DNA of 64,000 nucleotides from Gemmatimonadota bacterium (GTDB lineage: Bacteria > Latescibacterota > UBA2968 > UBA8231). Positions within the stretch are counted from its first letter, which is position 1. Each line of letters starts with the position of its first letter. Positions 29,415 to 47,985 of the stretch are shown piece after piece. Under the pieces are notes generated by a model. The model saw nothing but the letters and a program-made list of their open reading frames with translations, was not told where the DNA came from and made no database searches. The stretch lies in assembly GCA_038153405.1 (NCBI GenBank), contig JAYOYH010000007.1:43096-107095 (forward strand). The letters run 5' to 3'. Position numbers and translations under genes: made by a program.

Positions 29415-30347
29415 ATGAGGAAGCTGAGCATAGCTGCAGCTGCAGTGGTCGGTTTGGCCGGTGCCGCTTTCGCCCAGGGCGAAAGGGTATTCGACCTGCC
29501 GAAGCTTACCCAGGCACCCGTTCTCGACGGTGTCATTGACGGCGATGAGTGGAACGGTTCGCTCGAACTCGACTGTTCCCCCTCGCGCGTTCAGGCCGAC
29601 GGTGCCGAGTATGGCTGGCGCGACATCGAAGCCCAGCAGAGCGAAGTTAGCGTCAATCAGTTGGTGCAGTCGGATGGCGAAGATGCCGCGATTGCCCGCA
29701 CCGATGCCGACTTCAGCTCGCGCATTTGGCAGGCTTGGGATGACGACGGCCTGTGGGTCGTAACCGCCGCTGCCGACAACGTCCATGACGTTGAGGGTGG
29801 TGACCGCGGTTGGGCCTGGTGGGAGCGCGATAGCCTCTCCCTCTACGTCGATCTGCTCAACGAAAAAGAAGAGTCTGTGCTCAACGGTGAATACACCGCG
29901 CTGAATATCATCAACTTCCAGGCTCGTCCGCTTGAGTCCAGCCCCTACACCGTTTCGTGGGCCCGCACGGTTGAAAATGCGCGTTCTGACGAAGACGGTA
30001 ACGATCCCGACCTCGTCGCTGGTTTCGACAACGGCTATCGCGACGCAGGCGACGAGTTTGGTGGCGAAGCAGACTACGTCCTTGAGATGTTTATTCCCTG
30101 GGAGAACCTGCTCCGTTTTAACCTGCCCGCCACGCCGGTCGTCGGCACCGAGATGGGTTTCTCTTGGCTGCCGCCAGATCCGGATGGCGATGACGCCTAC
30201 GGCGGTCAGTTGCAGTGCTGGGGATGGGCTGATGACCCCTCCAACTACTCCACTTGGATCTTCTCCGACATGCCGGCTGGTCCCGCTGGTGGCAGCACGG
30301 CCGTCGAGAGCGATTCATGGGGTCGCATCAAGACGACGTTCCAGTAA
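29415..30347 (+). CDS. Secreted CBM9-like (carbohydrate-binding family 9 / DOMON-like) protein
   Basis: AAGGAG Shine-Dalgarno 8 nt before ATG 29415. The signal peptide ends AFA-QGE. The mature N-terminus LTQAPVLDGVIDGDEWNGS matches the CBM9 opening motif (P.IDG..DE.W), and later W/D-rich beta strands follow. Confidence 0.65.
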   Translation: MRKLSIAAAAVVGLAGAAFAQGERVFDLPKLTQAPVLDGVIDGDEWNGSLELDCSPSRVQADGAEYGWRDIEAQQSEVSVNQLVQSDGEDAAIARTDADFSSRIWQAWDDDGLWVVTAAADNVHDVEGGDRGWAWWERDSLSLYVDLLNEKEESVLNGEYTALNIINFQARPLESSPYTVSWARTVENARSDEDGNDPDLVAGFDNGYRDAGDEFGGEADYVLEMFIPWENLLRFNLPATPVVGTEMGFSWLPPDPDGDDAYGGQLQCWGWADDPSNYSTWIFSDMPAGPAGGSTAVESDSWGRIKTTFQ

Positions 30348-30512
30348 GACTGGGCTTTATAGCCTGATGTAAAGGTCGTATTGTTGAGTTTCATGCCGGG
30401 GAAGTTACTTCCTCGGCATGAAACCTATAGAGGCCTATGCCTTTTTTCACTACAATACAAATTTGGATACGTGCCCGTGCGGGTGCGTGTCGAGGATGAC
30501 GGGGAGCCGACG

Positions 30513-33500
30513 GTGAAAACGCCCTTCAAGGTGAATTTAAGCCAAATAGCACGGTTCTTGGCGTTGGTTGGCTTATGGACGCTTGCCTCCCAGGCCGATG
30601 CGCAGCGCCATCCGGAATCGCAGGGCCCCTTGCCCTACTATCGCGATGAACCGGGGGTGTTGCCGGAGCCTGAATGGCTGCATCGCCCCGAGTTCATCCG
30701 TGGGCCGCGGGATCGCTATGAGCGCGGTGCCAATCGACTGTTTTTGGCCACAGGGGACGACGTTCCCTACCTCAACTACGCCGAAGAGCGCTTTATCCTC
30801 TCGCAGCGAGAGTTAATTCCTTGGTTCCAGCCCAAAGGCCGTTCTTGGAAATTTCGCAACACGCGCTGGGATCGCATGGGCAATTATATGGGATCCCCCT
30901 CCAGTACATCCTCGCCGGCCAGCGGTTATTTGCGGCTGTTTTCTTGGGAGGAAACGCGCAGCGACGACGACGGTTTAGGGCGCAGTTTTATCGACCATCG
31001 CTCGCCTTCGCCGTGGGGGCCGCCTGCCGGATATAACGACGCCACTTTGCGCATAGGTCATTACAACTATAAAGATCTTCACTGGACGGCTACCGTCGGT
31101 CAGAGTGTGCGCAGTTATTTCACGCCGTTGACGCTAGCGCAAAGCCATCTTTCCGTGGCGCGCTTGGACTTCGATAATAAATTCGGCAAAGACCGCGCCA
31201 CGATTCTGCTCAACAGGGGGCGGACGCGGCCCGGTGGCCTCTTTTCCGAATGGGCTTCCGTTGGCGGTGAAACCGAAGATGCCAACCCAGTCCTTATGTA
31301 CGGTCTCCACTACAAGCATCGCTTCGGCCGCTACGCCCAATTTGGCACGACGCTCCTCAACCAGGTTTTGAACCAACCCGGATCCGGCAGCAGCAGTCCT
31401 TTGAAGGGCGATCTGCCCTACGATATGCTCGGTCCGCGCGTGATTCGCGTGTTCATCGCCGATGATTCACCCAGAGAGAGCCTGCACAATGCCAAGGTCT
31501 ACGGCGTCGACATCGTCGTTCGCGGCACGCGCGGAGACCAGCCCGTGACCCTTAGCAACCGCCAGGGGGAATTCTACGACCCGGGTTTAGAGCCGGTAGT
31601 GGCAGGTGGGCGGTTGCTGAGCGGAGATGGGCGGGAGGCGGTCGGTCTTGAAACGGTCGTGTATGAATTTACTATTCCGGGTGATATTACGGCGACCTCG
31701 GCCCGCTTCTTCGCCGATGTCTCCAACGACTATCGAATTGGCATTCGGCAAATCTACGATTTTCCCGGCATTAGCCGCTCGGGCGAGCTCGATTTGGAAG
31801 AGCGGGTTTGGCCCGACGACTTCGTCACCACCGAATCCGTCACGCGCCGCCCCTTTAAGTGGGATATCCAGGAGGGCGAGGAACCCTATTATACGGTGGC
31901 CCGTTCGGAGGGCGTGGGGCAAAATGGTTCAAACCGTCGCGTCGTGCAGTTCGATCACGGCATTCCCACGGGCCAGAACCTATTTTCGTTCGACGCACAG
32001 GCCAATCTCATCGGTCTGAAGTTCAGCGGCGAAATCGTCCGCAACAATCAGAATTACATCTATCCCGTAGGCCGCAATGACGGGCGGCGGACCAGCCACA
32101 AGGCGTTGGCCTATTGGCTCAACGTCAAAAAGGATATTGGGATTGCCAAGCGCTTGGGCGCGCAGCTGGGCGCCGAGTTTTTTCGCTTGGATCCCAGCTA
32201 TAGCGGCGGCTATGACAGCCAGCGCGGCGGCATGGCCTTCCACTTAGATCTGCAGGAATCACCGGGTGGGCGCGTGAAGTCGGATACGCAGGAGTACGGA
32301 CTGGTCGAAGACAACGACGACGACGATCAGTGGCCCGATGATTTTGTCGAAGATACAGCCTCGCCGGGACGCCTTTCTTACCCCGGTTGGCCCAACGCAT
32401 CCGTATATCCGGGCTTGGACGAAAATCTCGACAATATTCCCGACGTCGACCGCAACGAAAACTTTGTGCCCGATTGGAACGAGGCATTTCTCACCTACGA
32501 TGTCGATCCGCCAGAGTTTGTCTACGGAATAGACTTTAACAACAACGGCATGCCGGATTTTCGCGAGAACGACGACTTGCCCGACTATCCTTATCGCCGG
32601 GATCAAAAGGGACGCCACTTCTTCCTATTGCTTGACCGCTTGGGCGGCTGGGGCAAATCCATTTCCGCTGGCTACTATAAGTCGAACGAGATTGCTGGCG
32701 GGACTGAGGCCAAAAGCATGTACCTGCGCTATGCTCTCGAAAAGCAGCGAGATGGGGTGGGGAGTTTACAAATCAACATCGATACCAAGATCGTAGAGGA
32801 CAATATTCAAGACGATAGCTACGTGTATATCGTCCCGCCCAACGACGACGATGTCATTCCCTGGCTCAACAAGCCGGACCATCATCCCGACGTTGCCGGT
32901 CGCTACCGTCCTGCAACGCCCGATCCGCTGCTGATGCGCGACAGCTGGGTCAATACCGCTTATATCGACGCCGATTACCTGAAGATTGCGAATATGCGCA
33001 TTCACAATGCGCTGCTGTGGACGCGCAACAGCATGTCCGAGATTCCCCTTGAAGGAGGCGGAGATGGCGAGTTGTTGCAGGCCGAAGACGTCCGCTCGCG
33101 CCTCATCGTGATCAACAAAGTCGATCGAACCTGGTTGCTTAAGTCCATCGCGATTTCGACCAAGTTCAAACACCGCTTAATCTACGAAAATGTCGACAGC
33201 GAAGAAGATCCGCGCATATCAGCTTCCGATTTTATTCCCATCGTGATGGGGGAGTATGCGCTGACGCCCAAGACCCGATTGGTGCTGGGCGCACAGGGCA
33301 TGCCTTTTTTGCCCATGAAGCACTGGGATAGAGCCAATAAAGACGGCACTTATTCTCAGACCGACTACGCCTTCATGTACAAGATGCGCTCGGAGTATTT
33401 CGGTTTTGAAAACGACTTCTTCTTCGGCTATTTGCTTACGGATAGGCAGCACACTCGATTGCGCGACCGCGACTTCAATCGCGGCACGTTTTTCGTCGAA

Positions 33501-33518
33501 GTCATAACGCCATTCTAA
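30513..33518 (+). CDS. Large (~1000 aa) predicted outer-membrane beta-barrel protein with an acidic Ca-binding-like insert (paralog A)
   Basis: The GTG start at 30513 is preceded by GGGGAG and gives the signal peptide MKTPFKVNLSQIARFLALVGLWTLASQADA. The C-terminus ...FFVEVITPF carries the terminal Phe typical of OM beta-barrels. It is a strong paralog of 37552..40482. It lacks TonB-box/plug motifs, so it is not a classical TBDT. Confidence 0.7.
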   Translation: MKTPFKVNLSQIARFLALVGLWTLASQADAQRHPESQGPLPYYRDEPGVLPEPEWLHRPEFIRGPRDRYERGANRLFLATGDDVPYLNYAEERFILSQRELIPWFQPKGRSWKFRNTRWDRMGNYMGSPSSTSSPASGYLRLFSWEETRSDDDGLGRSFIDHRSPSPWGPPAGYNDATLRIGHYNYKDLHWTATVGQSVRSYFTPLTLAQSHLSVARLDFDNKFGKDRATILLNRGRTRPGGLFSEWASVGGETEDANPVLMYGLHYKHRFGRYAQFGTTLLNQVLNQPGSGSSSPLKGDLPYDMLGPRVIRVFIADDSPRESLHNAKVYGVDIVVRGTRGDQPVTLSNRQGEFYDPGLEPVVAGGRLLSGDGREAVGLETVVYEFTIPGDITATSARFFADVSNDYRIGIRQIYDFPGISRSGELDLEERVWPDDFVTTESVTRRPFKWDIQEGEEPYYTVARSEGVGQNGSNRRVVQFDHGIPTGQNLFSFDAQANLIGLKFSGEIVRNNQNYIYPVGRNDGRRTSHKALAYWLNVKKDIGIAKRLGAQLGAEFFRLDPSYSGGYDSQRGGMAFHLDLQESPGGRVKSDTQEYGLVEDNDDDDQWPDDFVEDTASPGRLSYPGWPNASVYPGLDENLDNIPDVDRNENFVPDWNEAFLTYDVDPPEFVYGIDFNNNGMPDFRENDDLPDYPYRRDQKGRHFFLLLDRLGGWGKSISAGYYKSNEIAGGTEAKSMYLRYALEKQRDGVGSLQINIDTKIVEDNIQDDSYVYIVPPNDDDVIPWLNKPDHHPDVAGRYRPATPDPLLMRDSWVNTAYIDADYLKIANMRIHNALLWTRNSMSEIPLEGGGDGELLQAEDVRSRLIVINKVDRTWLLKSIAISTKFKHRLIYENVDSEEDPRISASDFIPIVMGEYALTPKTRLVLGAQGMPFLPMKHWDRANKDGTYSQTDYAFMYKMRSEYFGFENDFFFGYLLTDRQHTRLRDRDFNRGTFFVEVITPF

Positions 33519-33523
33519 TCACG

Positions 33524-34285
33524 GTGAATGCGATGCCTCTGTTGAACTATACCGGCATACTCGCGGCTCTGTTGATCGCGGGATGCGCGCTTCCTCCGCA
33601 CTCTGTCCTTAAGTATCAGGTGCAGGCTTTACCCATTATCCCCGCGGGTGAATCGGTCTTTTACGAAGATCCGGTAGACAGCACCATTGTTTGGAGCAAA
33701 GAGGGCCTACAAATCAAAGTCCGGTTTTACAACGACGACATGCTCGATGCCCGTTTTGATCCGAGAGTGAGCCCCTATACGCTGACCGGATGGAGCGATC
33801 CAATCTTGGGGTACACGCCGCCGCTGTGGACGACGTTTGAAATCACGGTGATCAACCGCACGCGCGAACGCGTAGAACTCGACCCGACACAGGCCATACT
33901 GCGACTGGACAATGGCAACCATCTCTATTGTCGTCAAGGCGTTGGGGTTTGGAAGACGCTGCCGCACTACTACGACTACAGCTATCTGAAGTGGAGTGGC
34001 CGCCAGGGCAACGTCGAGTTTTATGCCAATACGGACCGTAACGCCATTTGGAACCGCACGGAATTTCAGCGCGAAAAGCCCGTGCGCAAAGGGCGCAAAT
34101 ACACGGGTATGCTAACCTTTCCTCGGCTGCCCAATGACGTCGAGTCGTTCACCCTTGAAATCAACGATTTCATCTTGGCCTATGACAGTGCCGAAGCCGG
34201 TTTTGGCAATCCGATAGAGTTTACTGATATACACTTTGACTTTACAGTGAAGCAGGGAGTGGTCACCGTGGAGAGGAGTCGCTAA
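33524..34285 (+). CDS. Lipoprotein, uncharacterised family (paralog of 45422..46216)
   Basis: Lipobox LIAGCA. It shares ..F.ITV.N.T....E.DP....L....G..L.Y.. and a C-terminal ..DF.L.(F/Y)D(S/A)...P....F....F.V.QGVV motif with 45422..46216. Confidence 0.65.
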   Translation: MNAMPLLNYTGILAALLIAGCALPPHSVLKYQVQALPIIPAGESVFYEDPVDSTIVWSKEGLQIKVRFYNDDMLDARFDPRVSPYTLTGWSDPILGYTPPLWTTFEITVINRTRERVELDPTQAILRLDNGNHLYCRQGVGVWKTLPHYYDYSYLKWSGRQGNVEFYANTDRNAIWNRTEFQREKPVRKGRKYTGMLTFPRLPNDVESFTLEINDFILAYDSAEAGFGNPIEFTDIHFDFTVKQGVVTVERSR

Positions 34286-34954
34286 ATGAGAGCGCCTGCT
34301 CTATACATGCGCGCGTTTGCCGTGTTTGCTGCGTTGGCTGCCGTTGTTGGCTGTGGAAATCTGAAATACCAGGCGCTCAAGGGGACCAGCGTGGAGAATC
34401 CACCGCAGGCTCCGGTGAAGGTCTACGTAAAGGAGTTCCCCGTTACGAGCAAGGCCAATGTAATCGATCCCAATGCCGCGCTGGGGGACGGCGGTTACGG
34501 TGGAGGCGGGCGATCGATCAATGCGCTGGCGGAAGTGGGCAATGCCATCATGGTCATATCGAGGCCCTCGCGCATCGAAGACCTAACCCGTTCCCTACTG
34601 CGCGAACTGCGTCCGCGGCAGCTGCGCATCTTTTCCGAGTACGATCGGGTAACAGACTTGAAGGGCGTTCGCAATATTGACAACCCATTTGTCCTCGTGC
34701 CGCCGGAAGACGAGTCGGCGCAGCTCGAAATTAGTGGCACTGTCTACTTGTTGAGCGAACGCGTCGAGCAGCGTTTTTCGCAAAACAGCAGCAGCGCGCG
34801 CGTGGAGCTTGTAGTGCGTGATGTTGCCAGCGGGGAAGAGGTTCGCTTGCCGCCGACGGCGGCCGGTATAAGCATGACCTATAACTCGAAAGAATTGGAA
34901 GAGGCGATCGCCATTTTCATCTCCACGCTGCTAACCCAAAAGACGCTCTTTTGA
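34286..34954 (+). CDS. Lipoprotein, hypothetical
   Basis: Signal with lipobox VVGCG, and a Gly-rich linker DGGYGGGGRS. It is translationally coupled, with the ATG 1 nt after the upstream stop. Confidence 0.55.
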   Translation: MRAPALYMRAFAVFAALAAVVGCGNLKYQALKGTSVENPPQAPVKVYVKEFPVTSKANVIDPNAALGDGGYGGGGRSINALAEVGNAIMVISRPSRIEDLTRSLLRELRPRQLRIFSEYDRVTDLKGVRNIDNPFVLVPPEDESAQLEISGTVYLLSERVEQRFSQNSSSARVELVVRDVASGEEVRLPPTAAGISMTYNSKELEEAIAIFISTLLTQKTLF

Positions 34955-34955
34955 G

Positions 34956-36602
34956 GTGGTGAGGAAGATTGCCTTGGTATCAATGGTAACCATGCTGACG
35001 GCCTTTCCCAGCGCAGTGGATGCTGCAAGCCAAACGGTGACTTGGCGTTGGGATGGCGAGGATGCGAGTGTCTTGCAGTTGCTGCAGACAAGCGTTGACG
35101 TCGGCCGCGGAGTTGTGTTGGACGTGCTCTCGCCAGACAAAAATATAGCTTTGGGAGCGATCGCGCGGAACGATTTTGGTCTGCGTGAACCGCTGACGGA
35201 CGGGGAGGTCTCTCTGGTTGCCAGCGAGTGGATATCCAATACGCCGAACGTATTCGGTCGATATTTCACCGTTGACCTTGGTGTAAACCGTGCGATAACG
35301 CGGGTGCGGGTGCGGCCCGGTCAAACCGCGATTAACCAACCGGAATACTACATCCGCGGATACAGAGTGGAAGCGGCCTTGGAAAATGATCCGGATATTT
35401 GGCGTCTGCTGGCCGAAGAGCGCACGAACTTCAATTTGCTAATTGACACCGGTGCGGACTCTACGTGGGCCGTTGTGGCCGATGGTCAACTCGCTTCTCG
35501 TTTGGGCCGCTACGTGCGCTTTACCATTACCCGGCAGGACCGCAGCAATTGGGTGGCAATTGGCGATATCGAGGTGTTCGGCGAGGGCGTTGAGGCTGAG
35601 GGTACGGCTCAATACACCTGGTTGCCGCAAGCACCGGTGAATGTGGGGCGCATACGGTGGCAGACCGAAGACCGTGCAGAGGGATTTAGTCTGTCTGCCA
35701 AGGGCGGTGATGAAACGTGGTCTACCGTCAACCCGCTGGAGTCCGATCGGTCTTTTGCAGGAGCTGAACCGATCGACTCGCTGCAATTTATGGCCTCGCT
35801 GTCGACTCACGATCCGTTTGCCACGCCCGTTTGGCGCGGGGTAGAGGTCGAATACGACACGCGCTTAGTCGCCGACGGGGCGTTGGGGGCGGTTGAGCCC
35901 AACGCGGTTGCCCGCGGGGAGTGGGCCGAGATTAACTACAGCATTGAACTGGCACTGCGAGCGGATAATTACGGTGTGGATAGGGTGCTATTGGACGGAA
36001 CGGCGCTGGTCGTTGATGGGCTGCGCGTGGATGGCGTCTTGCTGAGCAATAATGAGTATAGCTACAGCGCCAACGACGAATTGGGTCAGACTGAGATACA
36101 GATAAACCGCGCGGTCTTGCAGACGGCTCTGCTCCAAATAGAAGGCCGGGGCCTTTTCCTCAACGAGGTAACGGAGATAGGATTTCGCGTTGGCAATGCG
36201 CAGCAGGAAGAAGCCGACGGCTATATTAACTGGCAAAACGGCCGAGAGAGCCCGGTGGCTAGTTGGCGCGTGCGCGCTCAGGGAACACCCGGCGAATTGC
36301 TCGGCGAGATCGAGCTTTCCGAGCGGCCATTCTCGCCCTACGAAAGCAAAGAGCTGACGTTCAAGTTTATCGTCTCCAATTTGAACAACCCAACGGATAT
36401 CGTCCTTTCGCTCTATCGTTTGAACGGCGTGCGGGTCCGGCAAATGCAGCAAAACGGCGGTGCGCGGCCCTATGAATTCCGCTGGGATGGAAGGGATGAA
36501 GGGGACCGATTGGTGGACCCCGGTCTCTACTTGTACGAGGTAAGAGTAGCCGGTGGCGGCGAGAGGAGCGGGCGGCGAGGAACATGCGTTGTCGCCTATT
36601 AG
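34956..36602 (+). CDS. Secreted protein with a discoidin (F5/8 type C)-like domain and a C-terminal FlgD-Ig-like domain
   Basis: The central YVRFTITRQDRSNWVAIGDIEVFGEG is a discoidin-domain signature. The C-terminus YEFRWDGRDEGDRLVDPGLYLYEVRV matches the FlgD Ig-like/T9SS-type C-terminal domain pattern. Start could be GTG 34956 or ATG 34983. Confidence 0.6.
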   Translation: MVRKIALVSMVTMLTAFPSAVDAASQTVTWRWDGEDASVLQLLQTSVDVGRGVVLDVLSPDKNIALGAIARNDFGLREPLTDGEVSLVASEWISNTPNVFGRYFTVDLGVNRAITRVRVRPGQTAINQPEYYIRGYRVEAALENDPDIWRLLAEERTNFNLLIDTGADSTWAVVADGQLASRLGRYVRFTITRQDRSNWVAIGDIEVFGEGVEAEGTAQYTWLPQAPVNVGRIRWQTEDRAEGFSLSAKGGDETWSTVNPLESDRSFAGAEPIDSLQFMASLSTHDPFATPVWRGVEVEYDTRLVADGALGAVEPNAVARGEWAEINYSIELALRADNYGVDRVLLDGTALVVDGLRVDGVLLSNNEYSYSANDELGQTEIQINRAVLQTALLQIEGRGLFLNEVTEIGFRVGNAQQEEADGYINWQNGRESPVASWRVRAQGTPGELLGEIELSERPFSPYESKELTFKFIVSNLNNPTDIVLSLYRLNGVRVRQMQQNGGARPYEFRWDGRDEGDRLVDPGLYLYEVRVAGGGERSGRRGTCVVAY

Positions 36603-37452
36603 AAGCTGGTTGTTGTTCATTAATTGTTTGGGACTCAGTGTCGTAGGGCCAGTCGGCGCCGCGTTTGAAACGGGGGCAGGGGCGTATTCCACTGCGCTGG
36701 GCAACGCTTTTTCGGCCGGGGTAGAATCGGCCGAAGGAGTATGGTTTAATCCTGCGACCTCTGCTAGGCTGCGTTTGCCGCGCGTCGCCATAACGCAGGG
36801 TGCGCTCTACTCAGGGCTGAGCGATCGCCCAAGCATCAGCGCTGCAGCCGGTGTTTGGCCCCGGCGCTGGGGCACGCTGCAGGCGGGTTTTTCCGGCCTG
36901 TGGGCAGATGATTGGGCTGAAAGCCAGTGGCTATTGGGCTACGGTCGCGTGCTGCACCCTCGGTTGTCGGTTGGAGCGCAGCTGCGGACGGCCAGTTGGA
37001 GTTCGGGGCGCTATGGGCAGCGCCGCTGGCTGGCCACCGTCGGTGCCCTATACGAAGCGGGGTGGGTCAGTTCGCGTTCCTACGTTCGCTTTTCGGCTGT
37101 CGTGGCCAATATAGGCCGGCCCGATTCCAAGTCGGCCAGGGCGTCGGGTATGCCCGCGCGTTCGCATACGTTGGGCATGCAGGTTCGAAATGCAACGCGT
37201 GCCCTCTTGCTCGACTTGGTCGAACAGGGCGGCGATTGGCAGGCGCGCTGCGGGTATGAATCGGTGCTGCGCGCCGAATTAAAGCTGCGGCTTGGAGCGA
37301 CGGTATTGCGGGGTGATACCGTAAATAAGACCGGGCATATAGGACTGGGGTACGAGTGGAAAAACGTGCATTTTGACTATGCGTTTTCGCGTTCGTACGA
37401 CCTAAACGACTTCGGGGCCGACCACCGTTTTGGCATTGGCTATGCTTGGTGA
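36553..37452 (+). CDS. Small predicted outer-membrane beta-barrel protein with a FadL/PorV-like Gly-rich N-terminal motif
   Basis: GAGAYSTALGNAFSAGVESAEGVWFNPA resembles the FadL/PorV N-terminal motif (G.G.a....GAia.DA....NPA). The C-terminal ...RFGIGYAW carries a terminal aromatic. The likely true start is TTG 36610, giving the signal peptide LLFINCLGLSVVGPVGAA. Confidence 0.5.
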   Translation: MAARGAGGEEHALSPIRSWLLFINCLGLSVVGPVGAAFETGAGAYSTALGNAFSAGVESAEGVWFNPATSARLRLPRVAITQGALYSGLSDRPSISAAAGVWPRRWGTLQAGFSGLWADDWAESQWLLGYGRVLHPRLSVGAQLRTASWSSGRYGQRRWLATVGALYEAGWVSSRSYVRFSAVVANIGRPDSKSARASGMPARSHTLGMQVRNATRALLLDLVEQGGDWQARCGYESVLRAELKLRLGATVLRGDTVNKTGHIGLGYEWKNVHFDYAFSRSYDLNDFGADHRFGIGYAW

Positions 37453-40526: not shown

Positions 40527-43500
40527 ATGCTTCTTGTGAATCTTCTCGTGATTGCCATAATGGGCGGAGCTGTGGGGTTGACGTCGCGCTATTTTTCCCC
40601 GCAAGAGCTGCAAGATCGCTTTGGCTTTGGGCAAAAGCTCTATGCCTTGGGCGACTACGAGAAGGCCTTGCCTCATTTCGAAGCCGTTATGGCGACGAAA
40701 AACAACATCACGATCAACGTCGAAGATGTCACTGTTACTCTCGACGAGTTTATCTTGCCCGTGCGAGTTGCTGCCACCTATCAGCTGGGCAATACGCACA
40801 ACAAGCTGGGGCAGGACAAACTGCGCCGCTCGGGGTTCTTGCGCGCAGAGGGCAAAGAGGATCAAGCCGATCAGCGCTACCAAGAGGCATTGGAGGAATT
40901 CAAGCGCAGCTTGGAGTATTTTGGCGAAATAAGCGCTGGCGAAGAAATCGATGAGCGCACGCGGGTTATGGCGCAATTCCAGACGCTTGAAACCAACTAC
41001 AAGCTCAAGCAATTTGATAGCGTGATTGAAGAGGGGGAACGCCTGCTCGAGCAGTTTCCCAACAGCGTGTATGAGACGGCCGCTTACTATAATATCGGCT
41101 GGTCGTATTACGAATTGGGTCAATACGGCAACGCTATCGACAACTTTAAAGAAGTGATAACGCTGTCGCCGCGCGGTTCGCACGCCGACCGCTCATACTT
41201 TCAGATCGCCGAATCGTACGGCAATTTGGAAGAGTACGACCAATCGCTGAACTACCTGGACCGGCTCATACGGCGCTATGACTTTTCCGCGATGTCGGAA
41301 AAGGAACTGATAGAAATGGCCAGCCTCAAGCTCAAAGGCCTCGTCGAGGAGACCTCGCGTGAATTGGTCGCCAAAGCACAGCTCAAGCGCGGCGATATTT
41401 TTTCCCGGCGCGGCGATGTAGATATGGCGCTGGCGGCCTATGCCAATGTGCCGGAAAAGTATCCGATGGAGACGGCACTAGTCGAGAATGCCTACATTCG
41501 CTCAGCCGAACTGATCAACGAAACGCGCGGCACCGACGCGGCGCTTATCGCCTACCAGAGCGCCATTGAAAACGTTGACGACAAGCGCTTTCAGGCCAGA
41601 ACTCAGCTGACGATCGCGCGCTTGCTGTTTGAAAAAGATGCCTTTGAACGGGCGGCCGAGCAGTACCGCATCTTCCTCAGCGCCTACGGAGACGTGGCGG
41701 CGCGCATTGGCTTTGCCGAAGACAAGGTGCTCTTCCGCATCAGCCAGTGTCACCAAGCGCTGATTCGCACGCACTTGGCCAACGGCAATGCCGATGGGGC
41801 AGACGAAGCAACGGCTGAGGCGTTGAGGATCTACGACGAGCTGCTAGTCAAACACGGCGATAGCCCGCTGTTGCCCGACGTCTACTTCTCGCGCGGTTAC
41901 GCCCGCCAGCTAATAAAAGACGCAGGAGCAGCCGACGACTTCACGCATATGGTTAGTACCTACCCCGATCACCCAGCCGCCCCCAATGCGCTTCTGCAGC
42001 TTGCGCGCATCGACTTTGAGGCGGGTAAGTTCCAGAGGGCACAGGCGACCTATGAGCGATTGCTGACGGACTTTCCCGAATCTGACCCGATCAATCCCGC
42101 GCGTATGGAACTGGGTCTGTGCTTCAAGAATATGAACGACCTGACCCGCGCAATCGCCTCCTTTGAATCGATTGATTCGCAGTGGAGCCAGTGGGGCAAA
42201 GTGCAGGCTGAGTTGGCCGACCTCTACGTGCGTTCCGGCGATCGCTCGGGTGCCAAGCGCGTGCTCGAGCGCGCTATGGAGCAGGTTGACAGCGATGAAC
42301 TGCGCGGACAGCTCGTTTACGTAAAATCGCGCGTCCACTTCACCGAGGCCGAGTATCGCGAGGCCATTGAAGGCTTTTCGCAAGCGCTGGAACTGCCTAT
42401 TCGCGAAGATATTTACAACGGTTCGCTTCTCTCGCGGGGCAGTGCATACTACGAACTGGCCAAAACGCTCGATGCCAAGGGCGATACGGCGCGCGCGCGC
42501 GGCGAATACGAGTTGTCTTTGATTGATATGAAAGCGCTCCTTGAGCGCGACCCGCCAGCCAACATAAAGGACAGCGCATTTCGTACTTTGGGTGCGGGAA
42601 TGATCCGTCTGCAGCGAGAGGACGAGGCCGTTCGCTACTACAAAGAGCTCATCGCATCCAGCGATGATCAGCAGCAGCGCGCGACGTTTCAAATGCTGCT
42701 GATGGAGCTCTATTTTGATCAGCAGGCCTTCGAACAGTCTGAAATCTTTGCCCGAGAGCTCCTCGAAATGGATTTCGAGGACGACAACAACGCCGGCTAT
42801 TACCGCAAAGAACGCGCCTATTCAATAATTGGCAACGCGCTTGTTCAGCGCAAAGATTATGCGGAAGCCAGTAAGATTTTCGCCGAAGGGCTAGCCCAGT
42901 ATCCACAGTCGGGTGAGAGCGCCAACCTGGCCTTTTCCAAGGCGTTTTCTGATTTCAATGGCGGCGATTACGAACTGGCCGCTAAGGGGTTTGCTTTTTA
43001 TGTCAATTCGTTTTCGAACGATCGCAATGCCGTACACGGCCAGTACTACCTGGCCCATAGCTATCAAATGCTCACCGACTTTGATAGCGCGGCGACGTCA
43101 TTCAGTGAGCTAATGGATCGCTATCCTCGCTCGAACTATACCGAAGAGGCGATGTTCTTAGTCGGGGAAAATTACTACAACAAGCGCGATTTCGCCGCCG
43201 CTTCGCAGGCCTATTCTACGCTGCTAGAGCGCTTTCCGAAGGGAAGGTATGGCGACGCGGCTCTGTACGCCAAGGCCTGGTGCGAATTCGAGCAAGAAGA
43301 TATGGAAGCGGGAGTGGCTTCAATGGCCCAGCTCGTAAGCAACTTTCCCCAAAGCGAGTTTGCCGCCAAAGCTCAGTTTACGGTTGGCGATTACCACTAC
43401 AACAACCGCAACTATAAAGAGGCGCTCAAAGCCTACTCTGTCTTGATCGAGTCCTATGCCTCTACGCCGGAAAAACAGCGCGCAGAAGCTCTCGTCGAAG

Positions 43501-43799
43501 AACTGAGCGAAATCGAGGCGAGTTTGGATTACGCTCAGGTTATGGGCAAATTCGAGTCAAAAGACTATGAAAATGCCATTAGGGGTTTTAAGGAAATTAT
43601 CGAGAAATATCCCGATACCTATACGCAGCTGGCTGCCTATTGCAATCTGGGGCTCACCTACGAGATCCTCAGGCAGTGGCCTCAAGCTGTCGAGAATTAC
43701 GATCAAACCCTGGCCAGAGGGGAGGGCGATATCGAAAATTCGGACGTCGTCAATTTTGCTCGTCTGCACCGGGATTGGATCGTCGAAAACAGGCTATAA
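40527..43799 (+). CDS. 1090-aa TPR-repeat protein with an N-terminal membrane anchor
   Basis: An N-terminal TM (LLVNLLVIAIMGGAVGL) followed by more than 20 TPR-like units throughout (YNIGWSYYELGQYGNAIDNFKEVI and many others). Periplasmic scaffold-like. Confidence 0.8.
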   Translation: MLLVNLLVIAIMGGAVGLTSRYFSPQELQDRFGFGQKLYALGDYEKALPHFEAVMATKNNITINVEDVTVTLDEFILPVRVAATYQLGNTHNKLGQDKLRRSGFLRAEGKEDQADQRYQEALEEFKRSLEYFGEISAGEEIDERTRVMAQFQTLETNYKLKQFDSVIEEGERLLEQFPNSVYETAAYYNIGWSYYELGQYGNAIDNFKEVITLSPRGSHADRSYFQIAESYGNLEEYDQSLNYLDRLIRRYDFSAMSEKELIEMASLKLKGLVEETSRELVAKAQLKRGDIFSRRGDVDMALAAYANVPEKYPMETALVENAYIRSAELINETRGTDAALIAYQSAIENVDDKRFQARTQLTIARLLFEKDAFERAAEQYRIFLSAYGDVAARIGFAEDKVLFRISQCHQALIRTHLANGNADGADEATAEALRIYDELLVKHGDSPLLPDVYFSRGYARQLIKDAGAADDFTHMVSTYPDHPAAPNALLQLARIDFEAGKFQRAQATYERLLTDFPESDPINPARMELGLCFKNMNDLTRAIASFESIDSQWSQWGKVQAELADLYVRSGDRSGAKRVLERAMEQVDSDELRGQLVYVKSRVHFTEAEYREAIEGFSQALELPIREDIYNGSLLSRGSAYYELAKTLDAKGDTARARGEYELSLIDMKALLERDPPANIKDSAFRTLGAGMIRLQREDEAVRYYKELIASSDDQQQRATFQMLLMELYFDQQAFEQSEIFARELLEMDFEDDNNAGYYRKERAYSIIGNALVQRKDYAEASKIFAEGLAQYPQSGESANLAFSKAFSDFNGGDYELAAKGFAFYVNSFSNDRNAVHGQYYLAHSYQMLTDFDSAATSFSELMDRYPRSNYTEEAMFLVGENYYNKRDFAAASQAYSTLLERFPKGRYGDAALYAKAWCEFEQEDMEAGVASMAQLVSNFPQSEFAAKAQFTVGDYHYNNRNYKEALKAYSVLIESYASTPEKQRAEALVEELSEIEASLDYAQVMGKFESKDYENAIRGFKEIIEKYPDTYTQLAAYCNLGLTYEILRQWPQAVENYDQTLARGEGDIENSDVVNFARLHRDWIVENRL

Positions 43800-43835
43800 C
43801 ACGCACCCTACAAGCGCTACAATGGGAGGTCTAAG

Positions 43836-44504
43836 ATGTCGGAAAATTTTATAGTCGGCCAGTTTCTCAAGGGCGGTCCAATGATGTGGCCGCTATTGAT
43901 CTGTTCTCTCATTTCGATGGTCGTTGCCATCGACCGCCTGTTGAGCTATATGCGCCTGCCGTCTGAGGAAGAGGCGGAAGCACATCTTTCGGAAGTGGAA
44001 TCGGTGTTGGAAAAGGGCGGCGAAGCGGCCGCCGTAGAGCACTTCAAGGCGAATAAAGGCGTGCTCAATTACGTTTTTGCCGCGTTGTTAAAACGCTATG
44101 ACTCGCTCGTTTTAGAGAATCGGACGGATGTGGAGGATATGCGGCAGGAACTCATCACGGTTACGGAAGAGGCGGGCATCGACTATCTCGGCCGTCTGCT
44201 CAATGCCTTAGGGACGATTGGGGTGCTCGCACCGCTCATGGGGCTGCTGGGAACGATCGTGGGAATGATCCGCGCCTTTGACGCCATTGCCCAGGCCGGT
44301 GCCGGCGATCCGGCCGCCGTGGCCAGCGGTATTTCCGAAGCGCTTATCACCACGGCTTCGGGTCTGATCGTGGCCATTCCGACCATCGTCTTTCACCGTT
44401 ACCTATCTGCCCGGGCCGACAAGGCGTATAAGGAGATTGAACTCTACTGCCATGCCTTCGCCAACACGCTTATCGTTCGCTTTAGCAATCAGCGCGAGAG
44501 CTAG
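43836..44504 (+). CDS. exbB: MotA/TolQ/ExbB-family proton channel
   Basis: The classic core LGTIGVLAPLMGLLGTIVGMIRAF....GAGDPAAVASGISEALITTASGLIVAIPTIVFHRYL, with 3 TM segments and a length of 222 aa. Confidence 0.85.
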   Translation: MSENFIVGQFLKGGPMMWPLLICSLISMVVAIDRLLSYMRLPSEEEAEAHLSEVESVLEKGGEAAAVEHFKANKGVLNYVFAALLKRYDSLVLENRTDVEDMRQELITVTEEAGIDYLGRLLNALGTIGVLAPLMGLLGTIVGMIRAFDAIAQAGAGDPAAVASGISEALITTASGLIVAIPTIVFHRYLSARADKAYKEIELYCHAFANTLIVRFSNQRES

Positions 44505-44519
44505 AAGAGGAGAAGGGGG

Positions 44520-44966
44520 ATGCCCAAAAGGCCAGCACTAGCTCGGCGAATAAAGGGCAAGGCGCGCAATAATGCGCGTTTTGCGACCAGTACAGATCCG
44601 GATATGACGCCGTTGATCAACTGCATCTTTCTGCTATTGGTCTTCTTTATGGTGGCGACGACCTTTCTCAATACTAAGGGGCTTAGCGTTGATTTGCCTG
44701 GAGGCCAGGGGGATGATTCTTCGCGCGCTAGCAAAGATATCAACATCGTCATAGAAAAAGACGGTGCGATACAGGTCAACGGCGAATTGACGACGACCGA
44801 GCAGCTTGCCGAGCGGATTGGCAATATCGTTCAGTCCGATAATATCAAGAATGTGATTATAGAGGCGCATCGCACCGTTCGACACCAAACGGTGGTCCAG
44901 GTCGTCGATATCGCGCGCGGACAGGGTATCCAAGCGGTGGCTTTTGCCAAGTCGGCGGAGGGCTAG
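44520..44966 (+). CDS. exbD: ExbD/TolR-family protein (copy 1)
   Basis: DMTPLINCIFLLLVFFMVATTF is the ExbD TM signature, with a periplasmic domain following. The length is 148 aa. Confidence 0.85.
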   Translation: MPKRPALARRIKGKARNNARFATSTDPDMTPLINCIFLLLVFFMVATTFLNTKGLSVDLPGGQGDDSSRASKDINIVIEKDGAIQVNGELTTTEQLAERIGNIVQSDNIKNVIIEAHRTVRHQTVVQVVDIARGQGIQAVAFAKSAEG

Positions 44967-44968
44967 CC

Positions 44969-45418
44969 ATGGCGCGCAGAATGCAGACAAGCGATGCCAA
45001 CAACAACGATCTTAACCTGACACCCCTGATTGACGCGGTCTTTCTATTGCTGGTCTTTTTTATGGTCACGTCAGTTTTTGTACAGGCCACGCAGTTAAAG
45101 ATCGAGTTGCCCATTGCCGACAACTACGACAAGATCGACCAGGAGAAAAAGCTGAGCCTGCTCATTTCGGCCGAGGGGCAACTCGAGTTTAACAGTCAGT
45201 TGGTGAGCATGGGCCAGTTGACCGGCTTCATTGAGGACGAACGCCTGCGTTCGGGGTCGGGCACCCTCATCATAACGGCCGATGCGCAAACGCCGCACGG
45301 CTTTGTACTCGATGCGATGGAAATGGCGGTAATGGCAGGTGTGAGCAAGATCGACCTCGAAACCGGCGAAAACAAAGCGGCCGGAGAGGCCAGCGCCGCG
45401 GCCGCAGCAAAGGAATAG
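44969..45418 (+). CDS. exbD: ExbD/TolR-family protein (copy 2)
   Basis: DLNLTPLIDAVFLLLVFFMVTSVF. It starts 3 nt after the copy-1 stop, and the length is 149 aa. Confidence 0.85.
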   Translation: MARRMQTSDANNNDLNLTPLIDAVFLLLVFFMVTSVFVQATQLKIELPIADNYDKIDQEKKLSLLISAEGQLEFNSQLVSMGQLTGFIEDERLRSGSGTLIITADAQTPHGFVLDAMEMAVMAGVSKIDLETGENKAAGEASAAAAAKE

Positions 45419-45421
45419 CGA

Positions 45422-46216
45422 ATGACGTCCCTTCGGTTGAGTTCTATTGCCCTGTGTATGTCCCTTATCGCCACGCTGAGCGGATGTGCCTATCTGGCCA
45501 GCCTCATCCCGCAAGAGATGTATTACGAAATCTCTCTCAGCCCTTTGCTGCCCGAGGGGAGAGGTGAGTATCAGGTTGACCCCGACGATCCCCAAGCGGT
45601 GACGTTTAGCCACGAGGGCATGGTCGTACGGGTGCGGCCCTATACCGACGACGAACTCAACGCGCTCTATCCACCGCTCTTTGACGGGCGCCATACCAAT
45701 CCCTACACCACCGATCAACTCAATGTGGATCTCGGCTACGTGCCGCCGATTTTTATGGTGTTTGACATAACGGTGGTCAACCAGACGTATTCCAAGATCG
45801 AATTTGACCCGGCTAGGACTTTGCTTACGACCAATACCGGACGCAAGCTGCGCTATTACGATCCCGGTAGAGCTGGAGAGGGCGTAGATCCGCTGGGTGG
45901 AAACCGCTTTAGCACCTATTATCAGACGGAGCGGGGCCGTTCGGGTATCGATAAGGACATCAACTTGGAACGCATGGGCCTTATTTACAAAACGGCTTTC
46001 CATCGCTTTCGCCCCGTCTTTCGCGGCGACGAGCGCAGCGGCACGCTGACCTTTGATAAGTTGCCTCCCGATGCGACCGAGGTGGTCCTTTCAGTTGATG
46101 ACTTCGTCCTTTCTTTTGACGCGAGCGGCAACCCCGAACGGACCATTGACTTTGAGTGCCGGTTTAAAGTCAACCAGGGCGTTGTTGAAAGCCAAGTCGA
46201 TCCGCTGTTAGATTAG
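45422..46216 (+). CDS. Lipoprotein, uncharacterised family (paralog of 33524..34285)
   Basis: Lipobox TLSGCA, with FDITVVNQTYSKIEFDP and C-terminal DFVLSFDASGNP...F..RFKVNQGVVE blocks shared with 33524..34285. Confidence 0.65.
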   Translation: MTSLRLSSIALCMSLIATLSGCAYLASLIPQEMYYEISLSPLLPEGRGEYQVDPDDPQAVTFSHEGMVVRVRPYTDDELNALYPPLFDGRHTNPYTTDQLNVDLGYVPPIFMVFDITVVNQTYSKIEFDPARTLLTTNTGRKLRYYDPGRAGEGVDPLGGNRFSTYYQTERGRSGIDKDINLERMGLIYKTAFHRFRPVFRGDERSGTLTFDKLPPDATEVVLSVDDFVLSFDASGNPERTIDFECRFKVNQGVVESQVDPLLD

Positions 46217-46296
46217 GGCGCCAGCCCCCTCTATCGGGGCCCATTTAACGAAGGTTAACTCACCTGTTTAAACCGCACATCGTTTCATCTGCAAGT

Positions 46297-46341
46297 AATT
46301 CGACCAGAGAATGCACGGCCTCCGCACTCTCTGGTCGAATT
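46297..46341. promoter_or_regulatory. Perfect 14-bp inverted repeat AATTCGACCAGAGA-N17-TCTCTGGTCGAATT ending 3 nt before the ATG of the PPIase gene
   Basis: Seen directly: arms at 46297-46310 and 46328-46341. The hairpin would occlude the ribosome-binding region. This is a candidate operator or translational control element, or a terminator for the upstream gene. Confidence 0.5.
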
Positions 46342-46344
46342 GTA

Positions 46345-47985
46345 ATGTCGTCTTTGTCGCTCGCCCTATGTGGGCTGCTGATGGCCTGTGGCGGCGAGAA
46401 GCCGGCGCCCACACTGCTGGCACGAGTAGGCGATAAGTCCATCCATATCGACGATCTCATTGCTTTTGAGCGCGCCATTGAAAGCGGAGATTCGCTGAGC
46501 GCAGAGGCGCATCGCCAGCACCTTAATACGCTCGTCGATCGCGAAGTGCTGATCTTGGAAGCGCGAGCCCAAGGCTTGGAGACCGATGCCTATTTTCAGC
46601 AGGTACTGGCTGGTGATATTGAAACTAAACTAGCCGAAATGATGTTTAATCAGGAGGTGGCCGAGCGCTCTGAACCGACGCCGGAAGAAATTGAGGCGGC
46701 CTATGCCACCGGTGATTGGAAGCAGCAGGTCGTAAGCGTTGAGCTGTTCTTGCCCGACGAGGAAACGGCGCTTAGGGTGCGCGCGGAAATTCTCAATGGA
46801 ATGGACATCTTCGAGGCCGGTCGACTCTATTCGGTTGACCGCCTAATGCACATTCCGATGGGCGGTGCTCAGCAGTTTGTCTATTCCAAACAGGATGGAC
46901 CGGCCGAAGTCGTTCAGCGCGTTTTTCAGATTCCCGCCGGTAGTATTTCATCGCCTATACCGCTATTTAATGGCTTTGTCCTAGCCTACGTCGCCGAGTA
47001 CCGCGACGTCCAGCGTGCGGAGGTCGCCGACGAATTGGCCCGCTATGTTCGCAAGGAAAAGCGTCGCTTGCTGCGGGGGGCCTATTTGCAGCATTTGAAC
47101 AAAGCGCTCAATCTGCAGTTTTCATCGACCGGTTTAGAGCGCGCTGTTGCCCATTTGTCGCAGCTGAAAGCGGACGATTCGACGCCGCTGCCGGCCGACT
47201 CCAATGCGGTGGTCTATTCGTACGGTGACGCGTCTGCCGACCTGGGGACCGTTGTGGGATTGATGCAGGGTCCGGCGCGGCGCTGGCCCGAAATAAATTC
47301 GGAAAATATCGTCGCCGAAATAAAGAATACCGTATTGCCGAATCTGCTAATGGCCGCCAATGCGCGCGAACGCGATATCGATTCCTCGCCCGAGTTCCTC
47401 GCCTGGAAGAGCTGGCGCAGCGAGGATTTGCTCCTTTCGCTGCTGCGCAAAACCGTTTGCTCCGGCATCGAGGTGTCAGAAGATGAGGTGGTCTCGCACT
47501 ATCGGAAAGTGAGGCGGCGCTTTCGCATTCCCGGCTATGCCCGAGTGCGCGATGTGCTGGTGGCAACGCGGGAGGAAGCTGTTGCGCTCAAAGAGGCCGT
47601 TGAAAATGGAGCCGACTTTGCCCAGATCATTGAGGAGCATTCCCTGCGCAAGGGCAGCAAAAAAGGCGTGTTTCGCGTCTTTGCCCTACAGGCCAATAAA
47701 TATGGCAGCGGGTGGATGAACTACGCGTTTAACGTCCCTATCGGACAGCTTGAGGGGCCCGTGCAGGCCGAAGGGGGATTTTCCCTATTGGAAGTAGTCG
47801 AACGGGTCGATGATGCCTATTATTCCCTCGACGAGTCTAGGGTGCGCTCGGCGGTCACGCGCGATATGCAAAAAATAAAAGAACGCAGCGCGTTTAATGA
47901 ATTTGTAAGGGACGTGCGCGCAAGGCGCGCTGAGCAAATTACCCTATACCAAGATCATCTGGCAGCTGTTTGGGAGCGCCCGTAG
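46345..47985 (+). CDS. SurA/PpiD/PrsA-like periplasmic chaperone lipoprotein with a parvulin-type PPIase domain
   Basis: The signal ends LLMACGG (lipobox). The parvulin domain RVRDVLVATREEAVALKEAVENGADFAQIIEEHS..KG.....F..G.M...F....F....G.L.GPV....GF.LLEV is typical of PpiC/SurA. Confidence 0.75.
   Translation: MSSLSLALCGLLMACGGEKPAPTLLARVGDKSIHIDDLIAFERAIESGDSLSAEAHRQHLNTLVDREVLILEARAQGLETDAYFQQVLAGDIETKLAEMMFNQEVAERSEPTPEEIEAAYATGDWKQQVVSVELFLPDEETALRVRAEILNGMDIFEAGRLYSVDRLMHIPMGGAQQFVYSKQDGPAEVVQRVFQIPAGSISSPIPLFNGFVLAYVAEYRDVQRAEVADELARYVRKEKRRLLRGAYLQHLNKALNLQFSSTGLERAVAHLSQLKADDSTPLPADSNAVVYSYGDASADLGTVVGLMQGPARRWPEINSENIVAEIKNTVLPNLLMAANARERDIDSSPEFLAWKSWRSEDLLLSLLRKTVCSGIEVSEDEVVSHYRKVRRRFRIPGYARVRDVLVATREEAVALKEAVENGADFAQIIEEHSLRKGSKKGVFRVFALQANKYGSGWMNYAFNVPIGQLEGPVQAEGGFSLLEVVERVDDAYYSLDESRVRSAVTRDMQKIKERSAFNEFVRDVRARRAEQITLYQDHLAAVWERP

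Follow-up and report, generated by a model that had tools for sequence, protein, structure and literature searches.

Gene content of the locus

The 64,000-nt stretch of the Latescibacterota contig JAYOYH010000007.1 (GCA_038153405.1) analysed here, hereafter the window, carries a compact gene cluster in which two giant outer-membrane barrels are encoded together with an ExbB/ExbD-type motor, a long tetratricopeptide repeat (TPR) protein and a surface protein with a C-terminal domain (CTD) like those of type IX secretion systems (T9SS). All coordinates given below are positions in the window. A first-pass annotation, made from the letters alone, had described the region from 29415 to 47985 as a fourteen-gene operon for a candidate undescribed trans-envelope machine. 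The tight, co-directional packing was as described: open reading frames (ORFs) on the + strand follow closely upon one another from 29370 to 47985, with spacings that stay between -50 and 48 nt as far as g12 and widen to 128 nt ahead of g13. The count, however, is 13, as it was in that annotation's own list.

The first gene, g1 (29415-30347, ORF from 29370), encodes a secreted CBM9-like protein (CBM9_1, E 2.7e-7, 31.1 bits against a cutoff of 23.4) whose signal peptide ends in ...AGAAFA/QG. It is followed by giant outer-membrane barrel A (g2, 30381-33518), for which GTG 30513 is probably the true start, giving ~1001 aa, and by two lipoproteins, g3 (33524-34285, lipobox IAGC) and the small g4 (34286-34954, lipobox VVGC). 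The next two genes encode a discoidin (F5/8 type C) surface protein with the probable T9SS-type CTD (g5, 34956-36602) and a small outer-membrane barrel that probably belongs to the PorV/PorQ/PorP superfamily of T9SS carriers (g6, 36553-37452). Giant barrel B (g7, 37501-40482) precedes a TPR protein of 1090 aa held in the membrane by one N-terminal anchor (g8, 40527-43799), an ExbB/TolQ-type proton channel (g9, 43836-44504) and two ExbD/TolR paralogues, of which g10 (44520-44966) has Asn in place of the transmembrane Asp that g11 (44969-45418) retains. An Ig-like lipoprotein (g12, 45422-46216, lipobox LSGC) and a SurA-like parvulin peptidyl-prolyl isomerase (PPIase) lipoprotein (g13, 46345-47985, lipobox LMAC) complete the series.

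Domain searches bore out the label that each gene had been given (CBM9, discoidin plus FlgD-Ig, PorV-like, TPR, ExbB, two ExbDs, PPIase and lipoproteins). The two paralogies that had been proposed are also real, at 35% identity between barrels A and B (E 6e-158) and 34% between the lipoproteins g3 and g12 (E 3e-40). The PPIase is of the parvulin type (Rotamase_2, 53.4 bits; Rotamase, 35.5 bits), and g4 has no family in Pfam or NCBIfam and no PDB match.

The system reaches past 29415-47985, because the gene for a membrane-anchored DUF4159 protein (g0b, 393 aa; Pfam DUF4159, 37.3 bits) sits upstream on the minus strand, at 26877-28058. Adjoining it is g0a (28055-29131, -), the first gene of this divergent operon, which encodes a secreted, family-less protein of 358 aa; a polytopic inner-membrane protein with ~12 transmembrane helices (g14, 48105-50105, +) lies downstream of g13. 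Thus the genes originally placed between 29415 and 47985 are there, but the limits of the system are not, since conserved members (DUF4159, g0a and g14) lie outside them. Promoter and terminator scans gave counts near the shuffled expectation and were therefore of no use in drawing operon boundaries. Rfam and tRNA scans of the window returned no matches, nor did PADLOC defence models.

Conservation of the gene order within and beyond Latescibacterota

Homologues of barrel B are all annotated as hypothetical proteins and come chiefly from metagenome-assembled genomes (MAGs) of Candidatus Latescibacterota; L001 is a 96%-identical relative. A scan of one genome per species located 58 loci, nearly all in Latescibacterota, with some labelled Gemmatimonadota or Handelsmanbacteria. 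When every window protein was searched by tblastn, the order g0a(-) g1 g2 ... g13 g14 was recovered in ~35 Latescibacterota loci, including those in which barrel identity falls to 50-60%, and gene calls on one 6.3-Mb genome reproduced it. Because this order recurs in ~35 independent Latescibacterota genome loci, the arrangement is no accident. In 47 of 48 Latescibacterota loci the last barrel is succeeded by the TPR gene, and ExbB was found in 34 of the 37 loci with sufficient flanking sequence.

The barrels extend well beyond this phylum. Among 1.84 billion representatives, a profile of the family matched 731 clusters (50% identity), of which 231 reached E<=1e-30, and a search begun from a distant member reached MAGs of KSB1, Zixibacteria, Marinimicrobia, Ignavibacteriales and 'Bacteroidetes'. 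The barrel family is no one-off and is distributed across the whole Fibrobacteres-Chlorobi-Bacteroidetes (FCB) group. Contexts were annotated for one locus each from Ignavibacteriales (L060), Zixibacteria (L061), KSB1 (L062) and Marinimicrobia (L064), and these four share a core of eight genes: a discoidin protein with a CHU_C/FlgD_ig C-terminus, an outer-membrane protein of ~310-330 aa, a giant barrel, a TPR protein of ~1040 aa, ExbB, a single ExbD, one or two DUF4159 proteins and a small lipoprotein. The co-conservation that the idea of a machine requires was thus found twice over, as the full order in ~35 Latescibacterota genomes and as this core in four further phyla. We found no description of the cluster, of DUF4159, or of Latescibacteria together with ExbB in the literature searched.

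Pairwise comparisons linked the window genes to this core directly. The KSB1 orthologues match g5 (E 2e-25), g6 (full-length, E 2e-9) and g0b (27% identical over the full length, E 3e-40), and g12 matches the lipoproteins of KSB1 (E 1.5e-39), Zixibacteria (E 1e-32), Ignavibacteriales (E 3e-30) and Marinimicrobia (E 2e-28). As the cores and the pairwise matches agree, the ancestral system would have consisted of g5-g6-g7-g8-g9-g10/11 plus DUF4159 and g12. Barrel A, g1, g3, g4, the second ExbD (g11), g13 and g14 fall outside the core of the other four phyla, and among the loci examined g1, g4 and g14 were matched in Latescibacterota only. Some variants from outside Latescibacterota do include a further barrel, another ExbD and a SurA-like PPIase, and a g13-type PPIase is tied to the barrels both in Latescibacterota and in a second lineage, which has the order discoidin-barrel-barrel-PPIase.

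A metagenome scan added 47 loci, ~12 of which have the core order; in three, ExbB-ExbD-ExbD has been relocated upstream of the discoidin gene. In 20 of 22 loci the discoidin gene precedes the first barrel by no more than 2.5 kb. In some lineages the modules are split. Handelsmanbacteria-type loci have barrels with no adjoining ExbB/ExbD, one metagenome lineage consists only of the discoidin gene, two barrels and a SurA-like PPIase with no motor within 10 kb, and in Latescibacterota the DUF4159 gene has shifted to the divergent strand. Such splits would be expected if there were no single system at all, and a T9SS cargo/carrier pair, a barrel/lipoprotein family and a Ton-type motor were merely juxtaposed. 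We regard this as very improbable, because at least five phyla share the same order while their proteins are 25-40% identical, the genes lying a few bases apart or overlapping at stop and start, and unrelated genes would not be expected to be conserved in this way.

The genes at the edges of the cluster differ in how closely they follow it. g0a adjoins g1 divergently in most Latescibacterota loci (26-78% identity) and has no Pfam match; the idea that it might be a second DUF4159 protein was rejected for want of homology. g14 invariably follows g13 in Latescibacterota, is absent from the clusters of other phyla, and is the best-conserved gene of the neighbourhood (76-97% identical across loci, and still 76-86% where the barrels are at ~60%). 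It has no Pfam, NCBIfam or PDB match, and its membership in the system is uncertain. A relationship of g14 to the adjacent DUF6785 gene was considered and rejected. On the other side of the cluster, a gene for a HEAT-repeat protein of 272 aa (25962-26780, -; Pfam HEAT_2, 142 bits) has counterparts adjoining the cluster in KSB1 (L062), another Latescibacterota locus (L065) and a metagenome (L077), and we assign it to the system only weakly.

The giant barrels, the motor and the surface proteins

Like the small barrel g6, both giant barrels end in F or W, as outer-membrane barrels do (the tail of g2 is ...VEVITPF). An AlphaFold2 model built on an alignment of 37 sequences was mostly beta (pLDDT 69, pTM 0.66), with low-confidence stretches at residues 37-101, 591-681 and 754-794 and with ~34 long strands, a number that counts strands in the model and not transmembrane strands. 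The best Foldseek matches were the largest known barrels, SlpA (E 1.9e-9), MtrB (1.8e-8), SprA (2.7e-6) and LptD (4e-6), with TM-scores all at or below 0.23, which amounts to generic barrel likeness. A profile of the family found no PDB sequence at E<=10. Neither Pfam nor NCBIfam holds a family for A, B or 20 distant members, save for sub-threshold SlpA_C matches in relatives (no higher than 26.8 bits; cutoff 35); the window barrels have no SlpA_C match, and no SLH domain was seen.

These data allowed several identities to be rejected. An ordinary TonB-dependent transporter (TBDT) or SusC homologue was ruled out, since neither a Plug domain (E<=0.01 in Pfam, E<=0.1 in NCBIfam) nor TonB_dep_Rec was detected in A, B or the 20 distant relatives, no PDB sequence matched, and the fold matches were generic only; the barrels also appear to have far more than the 22 strands of such transporters, as far as the model allows. 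Membership among SprA, LptD, usher or SlpA proteins was rejected on the same sequence and fold data. In the case of SprA, there was no NCBIfam or Pfam match, the barrel profile missed the SprA PDB chains, and the Foldseek alignment scored TM 0.22 on the query and 0.11 on the target. The resemblance to SlpA, MtrB and LptD goes no further than the Foldseek ranking and the weak SlpA_C signal: sequence matches are missing, as are the SLH domain and coiled coil of SlpA, the cytochrome partner of MtrB and the N-terminal jellyroll of LptD. The pairing of a barrel with a small lipoprotein recalls LptD-LptE, but the fold of g12 is a generic Ig-like sandwich, unlike LptE. Since TBDT/SusC, SprA, LptD and SlpA all fail, the barrels constitute a large uncharacterised outer-membrane family.

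In every member of this family a long acidic stretch contains two loops of 12 residues, both invariant, which in barrel B are D632-x-N-x-N-G-x-x-D-x-x-E643 and D660-x-N-x-N-G-x-V-D-x-x-E671. We take these to match the EF-hand calcium-loop consensus, and the loops may bind calcium. The family is also found in other arrangements. In Latescibacterota, second loci (L048, L050, L052, L056 and L057) combine three barrels in tandem with a TPR protein and a g12-like lipoprotein; L063, in a genome of 5.9 Mb, has at least five tandem barrels and no motor nearby; and at L114 three barrels are accompanied by a PD40-like protein and a TPR protein.

The stator is of a known kind. g9 matched MotA_ExbB at 103.9 bits (cutoff 22.9), and g10 and g11 matched ExbD at 92.2 and 90.5 bits (cutoff 25.4). 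The best NCBIfam match of g9 was TolQ (99.6 bits), far below the equivalog cutoff of 221, and TolR scored 63.6 and 57.8 bits on the two window ExbDs, far below its cutoff of 127. The transmembrane motif is TPLIDAVF in g11, TPLIDCVF in the single ExbD of the four other phyla, and TPLINCIF in g10, with Asn at the position that corresponds, by reference to the E. coli sequences, to the proton-binding Asp of ExbD/TolR. This substitution suggests that g10 and g11 form an asymmetric ExbD pair. The TPR protein g8 has one N-terminal transmembrane helix and matches TPR families across residues 159-1064. Six separate stretches are YbgF-like (TIGR02795, 229 bits against a cutoff of 90), which indicates a shared repeat type and no equivalog, and the similarity to PorW/SprE is sub-threshold (108.6 bits against 250).

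A second, very divergent MotA/ExbB-like module, with no recognised ExbD or TonB partner, lies elsewhere in the window at 12241-15271 (+). It consists of ORFs at 12241-13356 (+, weak TPR_19), 13356-14507 (+, no family) and 14495-15271 (+, MotA_ExbB, 30.4 bits, E 3.8e-7).

A stator whose best NCBIfam matches are TolQ and TolR, encoded beside a TPR protein with six YbgF/CpoB-like units, invites comparison with Tol-Pal and CpoB/YbgF. The cluster could on these grounds serve outer-membrane maintenance, with stator and TPR protein energising stabilisation or tethering of the outer membrane and the giant barrels, remotely SlpA-like, acting as structural proteins or porins and not as a dedicated transport device. 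Its housekeeping-like conservation as a near-universal, single-copy locus would fit, as would SlpA as the top Foldseek match, the sub-threshold SlpA_C in several members, and the PD40-like protein that lies between the barrels and the TPR gene at one locus. The TolQ/TolR scores are nevertheless far under the equivalog cutoffs, g8 is four times the length of CpoB, and no TolA, TolB, Pal, OmpA-like, PD40 or SLH domain was detected in the window cluster. A maintenance role also leaves the constant pairing of a CTD-bearing discoidin with a T9SS-type carrier barrel unexplained, and we consider it quite unlikely.

That pairing points to type IX secretion. In the window, g5 reaches 24.8-27.3 bits with F5_F8_type_C, just below the cutoffs, and at its C-terminus 20.2 bits with FlgD_ig (cutoff 27) and E 1.5e-4 with the CTD of PorU. 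Its orthologues in four phyla reach F5_F8_type_C and the Pfam family CHU_C, named 'Type IX secretion signal' (27.3-30.9 bits against 27), share the motif PNPF(S/T)PNGDGxxD ... WDGRD, and have the CTDs of PorU and PorZ as their best NCBIfam matches. The small barrel g6, encoded beside this CTD partner, has no Pfam match and a sub-threshold match to the NCBIfam PorV_fam (E 4.8e-8, 32.9 bits against 90); its KSB1 and Ignavibacteriales orthologues score 35.8 and 27.6 bits, respectively, with PorP_SprF (cutoff 22.3), and that of Ignavibacteriales reaches 92.1 bits with the PorV/PorQ family NF033709 (cutoff 90). Through these orthologues, the T9SS resemblance suspected at first reading is real at the family level. 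Small Bacteroidota barrels of this type are described as binding a partner's CTD and carrying or anchoring it at the surface (PMC9143113, PMC12618676).

Additional CTD proteins are encoded nearby. They flank the cluster in every annotated discoidin-barrel locus outside Latescibacterota (L060-L062, L064, L113 and L114); the tandem-barrel locus L063 has no flanking CTD gene. A GHL10 (PF02638) glycosidase-like protein with a Por_Secre_tail recurs beside the core in at least seven loci from several phyla (L060, 956-2704; L061, 19524-21335; L064, 13142-14959; and, among related metagenome contigs and other loci, L067, L070, L076 and L079).

The g5/g6 pair shows family-level homology to CTD adhesin/carrier pairs, and this raises the prospect of adhesin propulsion, in which the discoidin adhesin, seated on a small-barrel/giant-barrel platform, would be moved or unmasked by the motor formed by ExbBD, the TPR protein and the TonB-like protein, as in Myxococcus Agl-Glt or Bacteroidota SprB-SprF. 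The part list resembles that of the Myxococcus Agl-Glt motility and Nfs spore-coat machines, which we take to comprise a motor of the TolQR type, single-pass proteins resembling TonB, several TPR proteins, barrels in the outer membrane and an adhesin at the surface. The barrels here are several-fold larger, and the Myxococcus machinery is not known to have a link to T9SS families. Many of the lineages carrying the cluster are planktonic and have small genomes, and the cluster includes no GldJ/K-like track proteins. Finally, SprF is tied to the gliding track by a C-terminal tail with twin cysteines that forms a disulfide with GldK (PMC12635249), whereas g6 and its four orthologues have no such tail and end at the last barrel strand (...GIGYAW, ...NFRF). 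Propulsion therefore seems improbable.

The protein that would convey the force of the stator is not a recognisable TonB. TonB_C was detected neither in the cluster genes, nor in the ~31 flanking window ORFs of at least 150 aa, nor in six annotated homologous loci; TolA/Pal, GldKLMN and SprA were likewise missing from the cluster proteins scanned, as had been noted at the outset. In KSB1, Ignavibacteriales, Zixibacteria and Marinimicrobia the position of TonB, directly after ExbD, is taken by the DUF4159 gene. The transmembrane helix of these proteins contains His in 11 of 12 sequences from outside Latescibacterota and the motif SxxxH, which we take to be the TonB pattern, in 10 of the 12; g0b retains the His (LSLILAVLIH). 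Beyond the helix lies a segment whose core, KF(I/V/M)(K/Q)R(A/E)PRLxK(P/Q/T)(L/M)EL, is invariant in 23 distinct DUF4159 homologues, with flanking PRPL...RKIP residues constant among the Latescibacterota sequences only. From its position and architecture, DUF4159 is a candidate TonB-like force transducer. Ignavibacteriales have a g12-type lipoprotein that carries a second, fused DUF4159 domain, a hint of DUF4159 pairing between inner and outer membrane. On the basis of structure, Pfam places DUF4159 in the class-I glutamine-amidotransferase-like clan (PMC4702930). Searches of PDB sequences with DUF4159, g4, g5, g6 and g14 yielded nothing useful.

This architecture parallels the Ton systems of the FCB group, in which TPR genes precede ExbB and one or two ExbDs (e.g. 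FSU_2396-2403 of Fibrobacter succinogenes; PMC6851124). Further likenesses are the single-pass protein in the TonB position, with its SxxxH helix and basic/Pro linker, the outer-membrane barrel of ~1000 aa followed by lipoproteins, and the glycan-binding modules; one difference is that the C-terminal domain is DUF4159 and not TonB_C. In the manner of Ton/SusCD, the giant barrel might be a channel energised to bring in a large glycan or some other polymer. The T9SS-displayed discoidin, with the CBM9 protein g1 in Latescibacterota, would capture the ligand, g12 would be a lid or plug, ExbBD and the TonB-like DUF4159 protein would open the channel, the TPR protein would be the usual companion of FCB Ton operons, and g14 could take the product across the inner membrane.

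Several observations favour uptake besides the TonB-position protein with its basic/Pro linker beside ExbB/ExbD. CBM9_1 and F5/8 type C are modules of a carbohydrate-binding kind, the recurrent GHL10 neighbour carries a secretion tail, the order barrel-lipoprotein-lipoprotein (g2-g3-g4) recalls SusC-SusD-SusE, three to five tandem barrel paralogues are typical of transporter families, and the polytopic g14 is tightly linked in Latescibacterota. Clusters of TPR genes with exbB-exbD-exbD-tonB are known in the FCB group and are induced by cellulose in Fibrobacter (PMC6851124). Against uptake, no plug domain, TonB box or TonB_C was found; there is one main locus of fixed order per genome, unlike the variable, multi-copy polysaccharide utilization loci; no consistent catabolic or inner-membrane transporter genes accompany the core outside Latescibacterota (L060-L062, L064); and a TPR protein of ~1000 aa and a dedicated PPIase are foreign to known uptake loci. 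We hold uptake to be possible though somewhat unlikely, and nearly as likely as the T9SS-like role described next.

A candidate envelope-spanning machine and its surroundings

Together, the non-TBDT barrels and the co-conservation across several phyla support the original proposal of a candidate undescribed trans-envelope machine, and we consider it probable that the genes form one ExbBD-coupled, envelope-spanning complex. By its logic, the system sits among the energy-transducing envelope systems Ton, Tol, Glt and T9SS. As far as sequence families go, known groups account only for the stator, the small barrel of carrier type and the CTD lectin, and there is no curated family for the barrels, the g12 lipoprotein, g4, g0a or g14.

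In the machine that we envisage, the proton motive force would drive the ExbB/ExbD (TolQ/TolR-like) stator in the inner membrane, and two anchored periplasmic proteins, the TPR protein and DUF4159, would pass its force outward, with the TPR solenoid of ~1090 aa in the role of SprE/PorW. The outer-membrane complex would be composed of one or more giant barrels of some 30 or more strands, one or more g12-type lipoproteins and the carrier barrel, with the g6-type barrel holding the T9SS-type CTD of the discoidin lectin, by analogy with T9SS carriers. Force applied to the giant barrel and carrier complex might then release, anchor or move the carrier-bound lectin, and neighbouring CTD proteins might be handled likewise. 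The giant barrel would be a conduit or a platform, and the SurA-like PPIase would serve the barrels. Our tentative preference, which falls short of an even chance, is thus for T9SS-like export, anchoring or movement of a surface lectin, a direction and purpose that reach beyond what has been shown, namely the genes present, their families and paralogy, the barrel fold and the synteny across phyla.

We favour a T9SS-like role because the T9SS extended translocon has the same cast and because no genomic association of the barrel is tighter than that with CTD proteins. In that translocon (SprA-PorV/PorP-PPI-SprE-SkpA, powered by GldLM/PorLM), a giant barrel, carrier, PPI and TPR protein act together and motor energy frees the carrier-substrate complex (PMC10994853). 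The present cluster likewise has a giant barrel in the outer membrane, a putative carrier in the form of a small FadL-like barrel (with homology at the family level for the g6 orthologues), a surface protein with a probable CTD encoded beside the carrier, a large TPR protein with weak PorW/SprE similarity, a PPIase and a proton-driven inner-membrane motor. There are also differences. The barrel is ~1000 aa long and has no SprA family match, whereas SprA has ~2400 aa and 36 strands; the motor is ExbB/ExbD instead of GldL/GldM, with no GldK/N hub; the TPR protein is anchored by an N-terminal helix and is not a lipoprotein; the PPIase is of the parvulin/SurA type; the carrier g6 has no SprF cysteine tail; and nothing in the T9SS corresponds to DUF4159 or the g12 lipoprotein.

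Other points weigh against this interpretation, including the lineages already described in which the motor is not adjacent to the barrels. The window copies of g5 and g6 stay under every curated cutoff, so that their T9SS assignment leans on orthologues, and the g5 orthologues themselves remain below the cutoffs of the NCBIfam sorting-domain models of type B, TIGR04131 (~20 bits against 35), and type A, TIGR04183. No gldKLMN/porKLMN-like genes were detected in the cluster or in the window ORFs scanned. The barrel has no sequence relation to SprA, and its Foldseek TM-score of 0.22 is no better than those of MtrB and LptD. Most Latescibacterota DUF4159 proteins lack the transmembrane His. Tandem expansions to three to five barrels look more like those of a transporter family, and the CBM9, discoidin and GHL10 neighbours would suit uptake equally well. 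Some of these phyla may already have a canonical T9SS (PMC11285876), and a second translocon would then be superfluous.

It is possible, if unlikely, that the cluster represents a new class of machine, an ExbBD-powered counterpart or relative of the T9SS/gliding apparatus with its own EF-hand-loop barrel, DUF4159 transducer and carrier/lectin pair. Such a class would span Latescibacterota, Ignavibacteriota, Zixibacteria, KSB1, Marinimicrobia and their relatives. If the genes do encode one machine, it would join the few systems (Ton, Tol-Pal, Agl-Glt, T9SS/gliding and flagellar stators) by which the outer membrane receives proton-motive energy from the inner one, would provide a first functional context for the ~1000-aa barrel family, DUF4159 and the g12 lipoprotein family, and would join Ton-type motors to T9SS-type surface proteins. 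The phyla that carry it are abundant in oceans, sediments and soils and are almost uncultured. For these organisms the cluster offers a concrete candidate for the display and use of glycan-binding surface proteins, with a bearing on polymer degradation and particle attachment.

Outside the cluster, paralogous polytopic proteins with DUF6785 and DUF6784 domains are encoded at 50229-52133 (+) and 60796-62802 (-), with E values of 4e-100 and 6e-110. The ORF at 52155-56810 (+) encodes a protein of 1551 aa with Peptidase_M28 and FtsX-like permease domains and several transmembrane helices. AT skew is strongly negative relative to the rest of the window (-0.25 to -0.30) at 48001-52000, a segment that coincides with the polytopic genes g14 and g15. 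Three FG-GAP/UnbV_ASPIC (CRTAC1-like) paralogues occur at 17510-19195 (+), 21930-23657 (-) and 23662-26121 (-, with an N-terminal TPR), interleaved with TPR proteins at 19217-20533 (-) and 20665-21933 (+). At the Latescibacterota locus L065, two FG-GAP/ASPIC genes lie past the HEAT gene, and one of them likewise has an N-terminal TPR.

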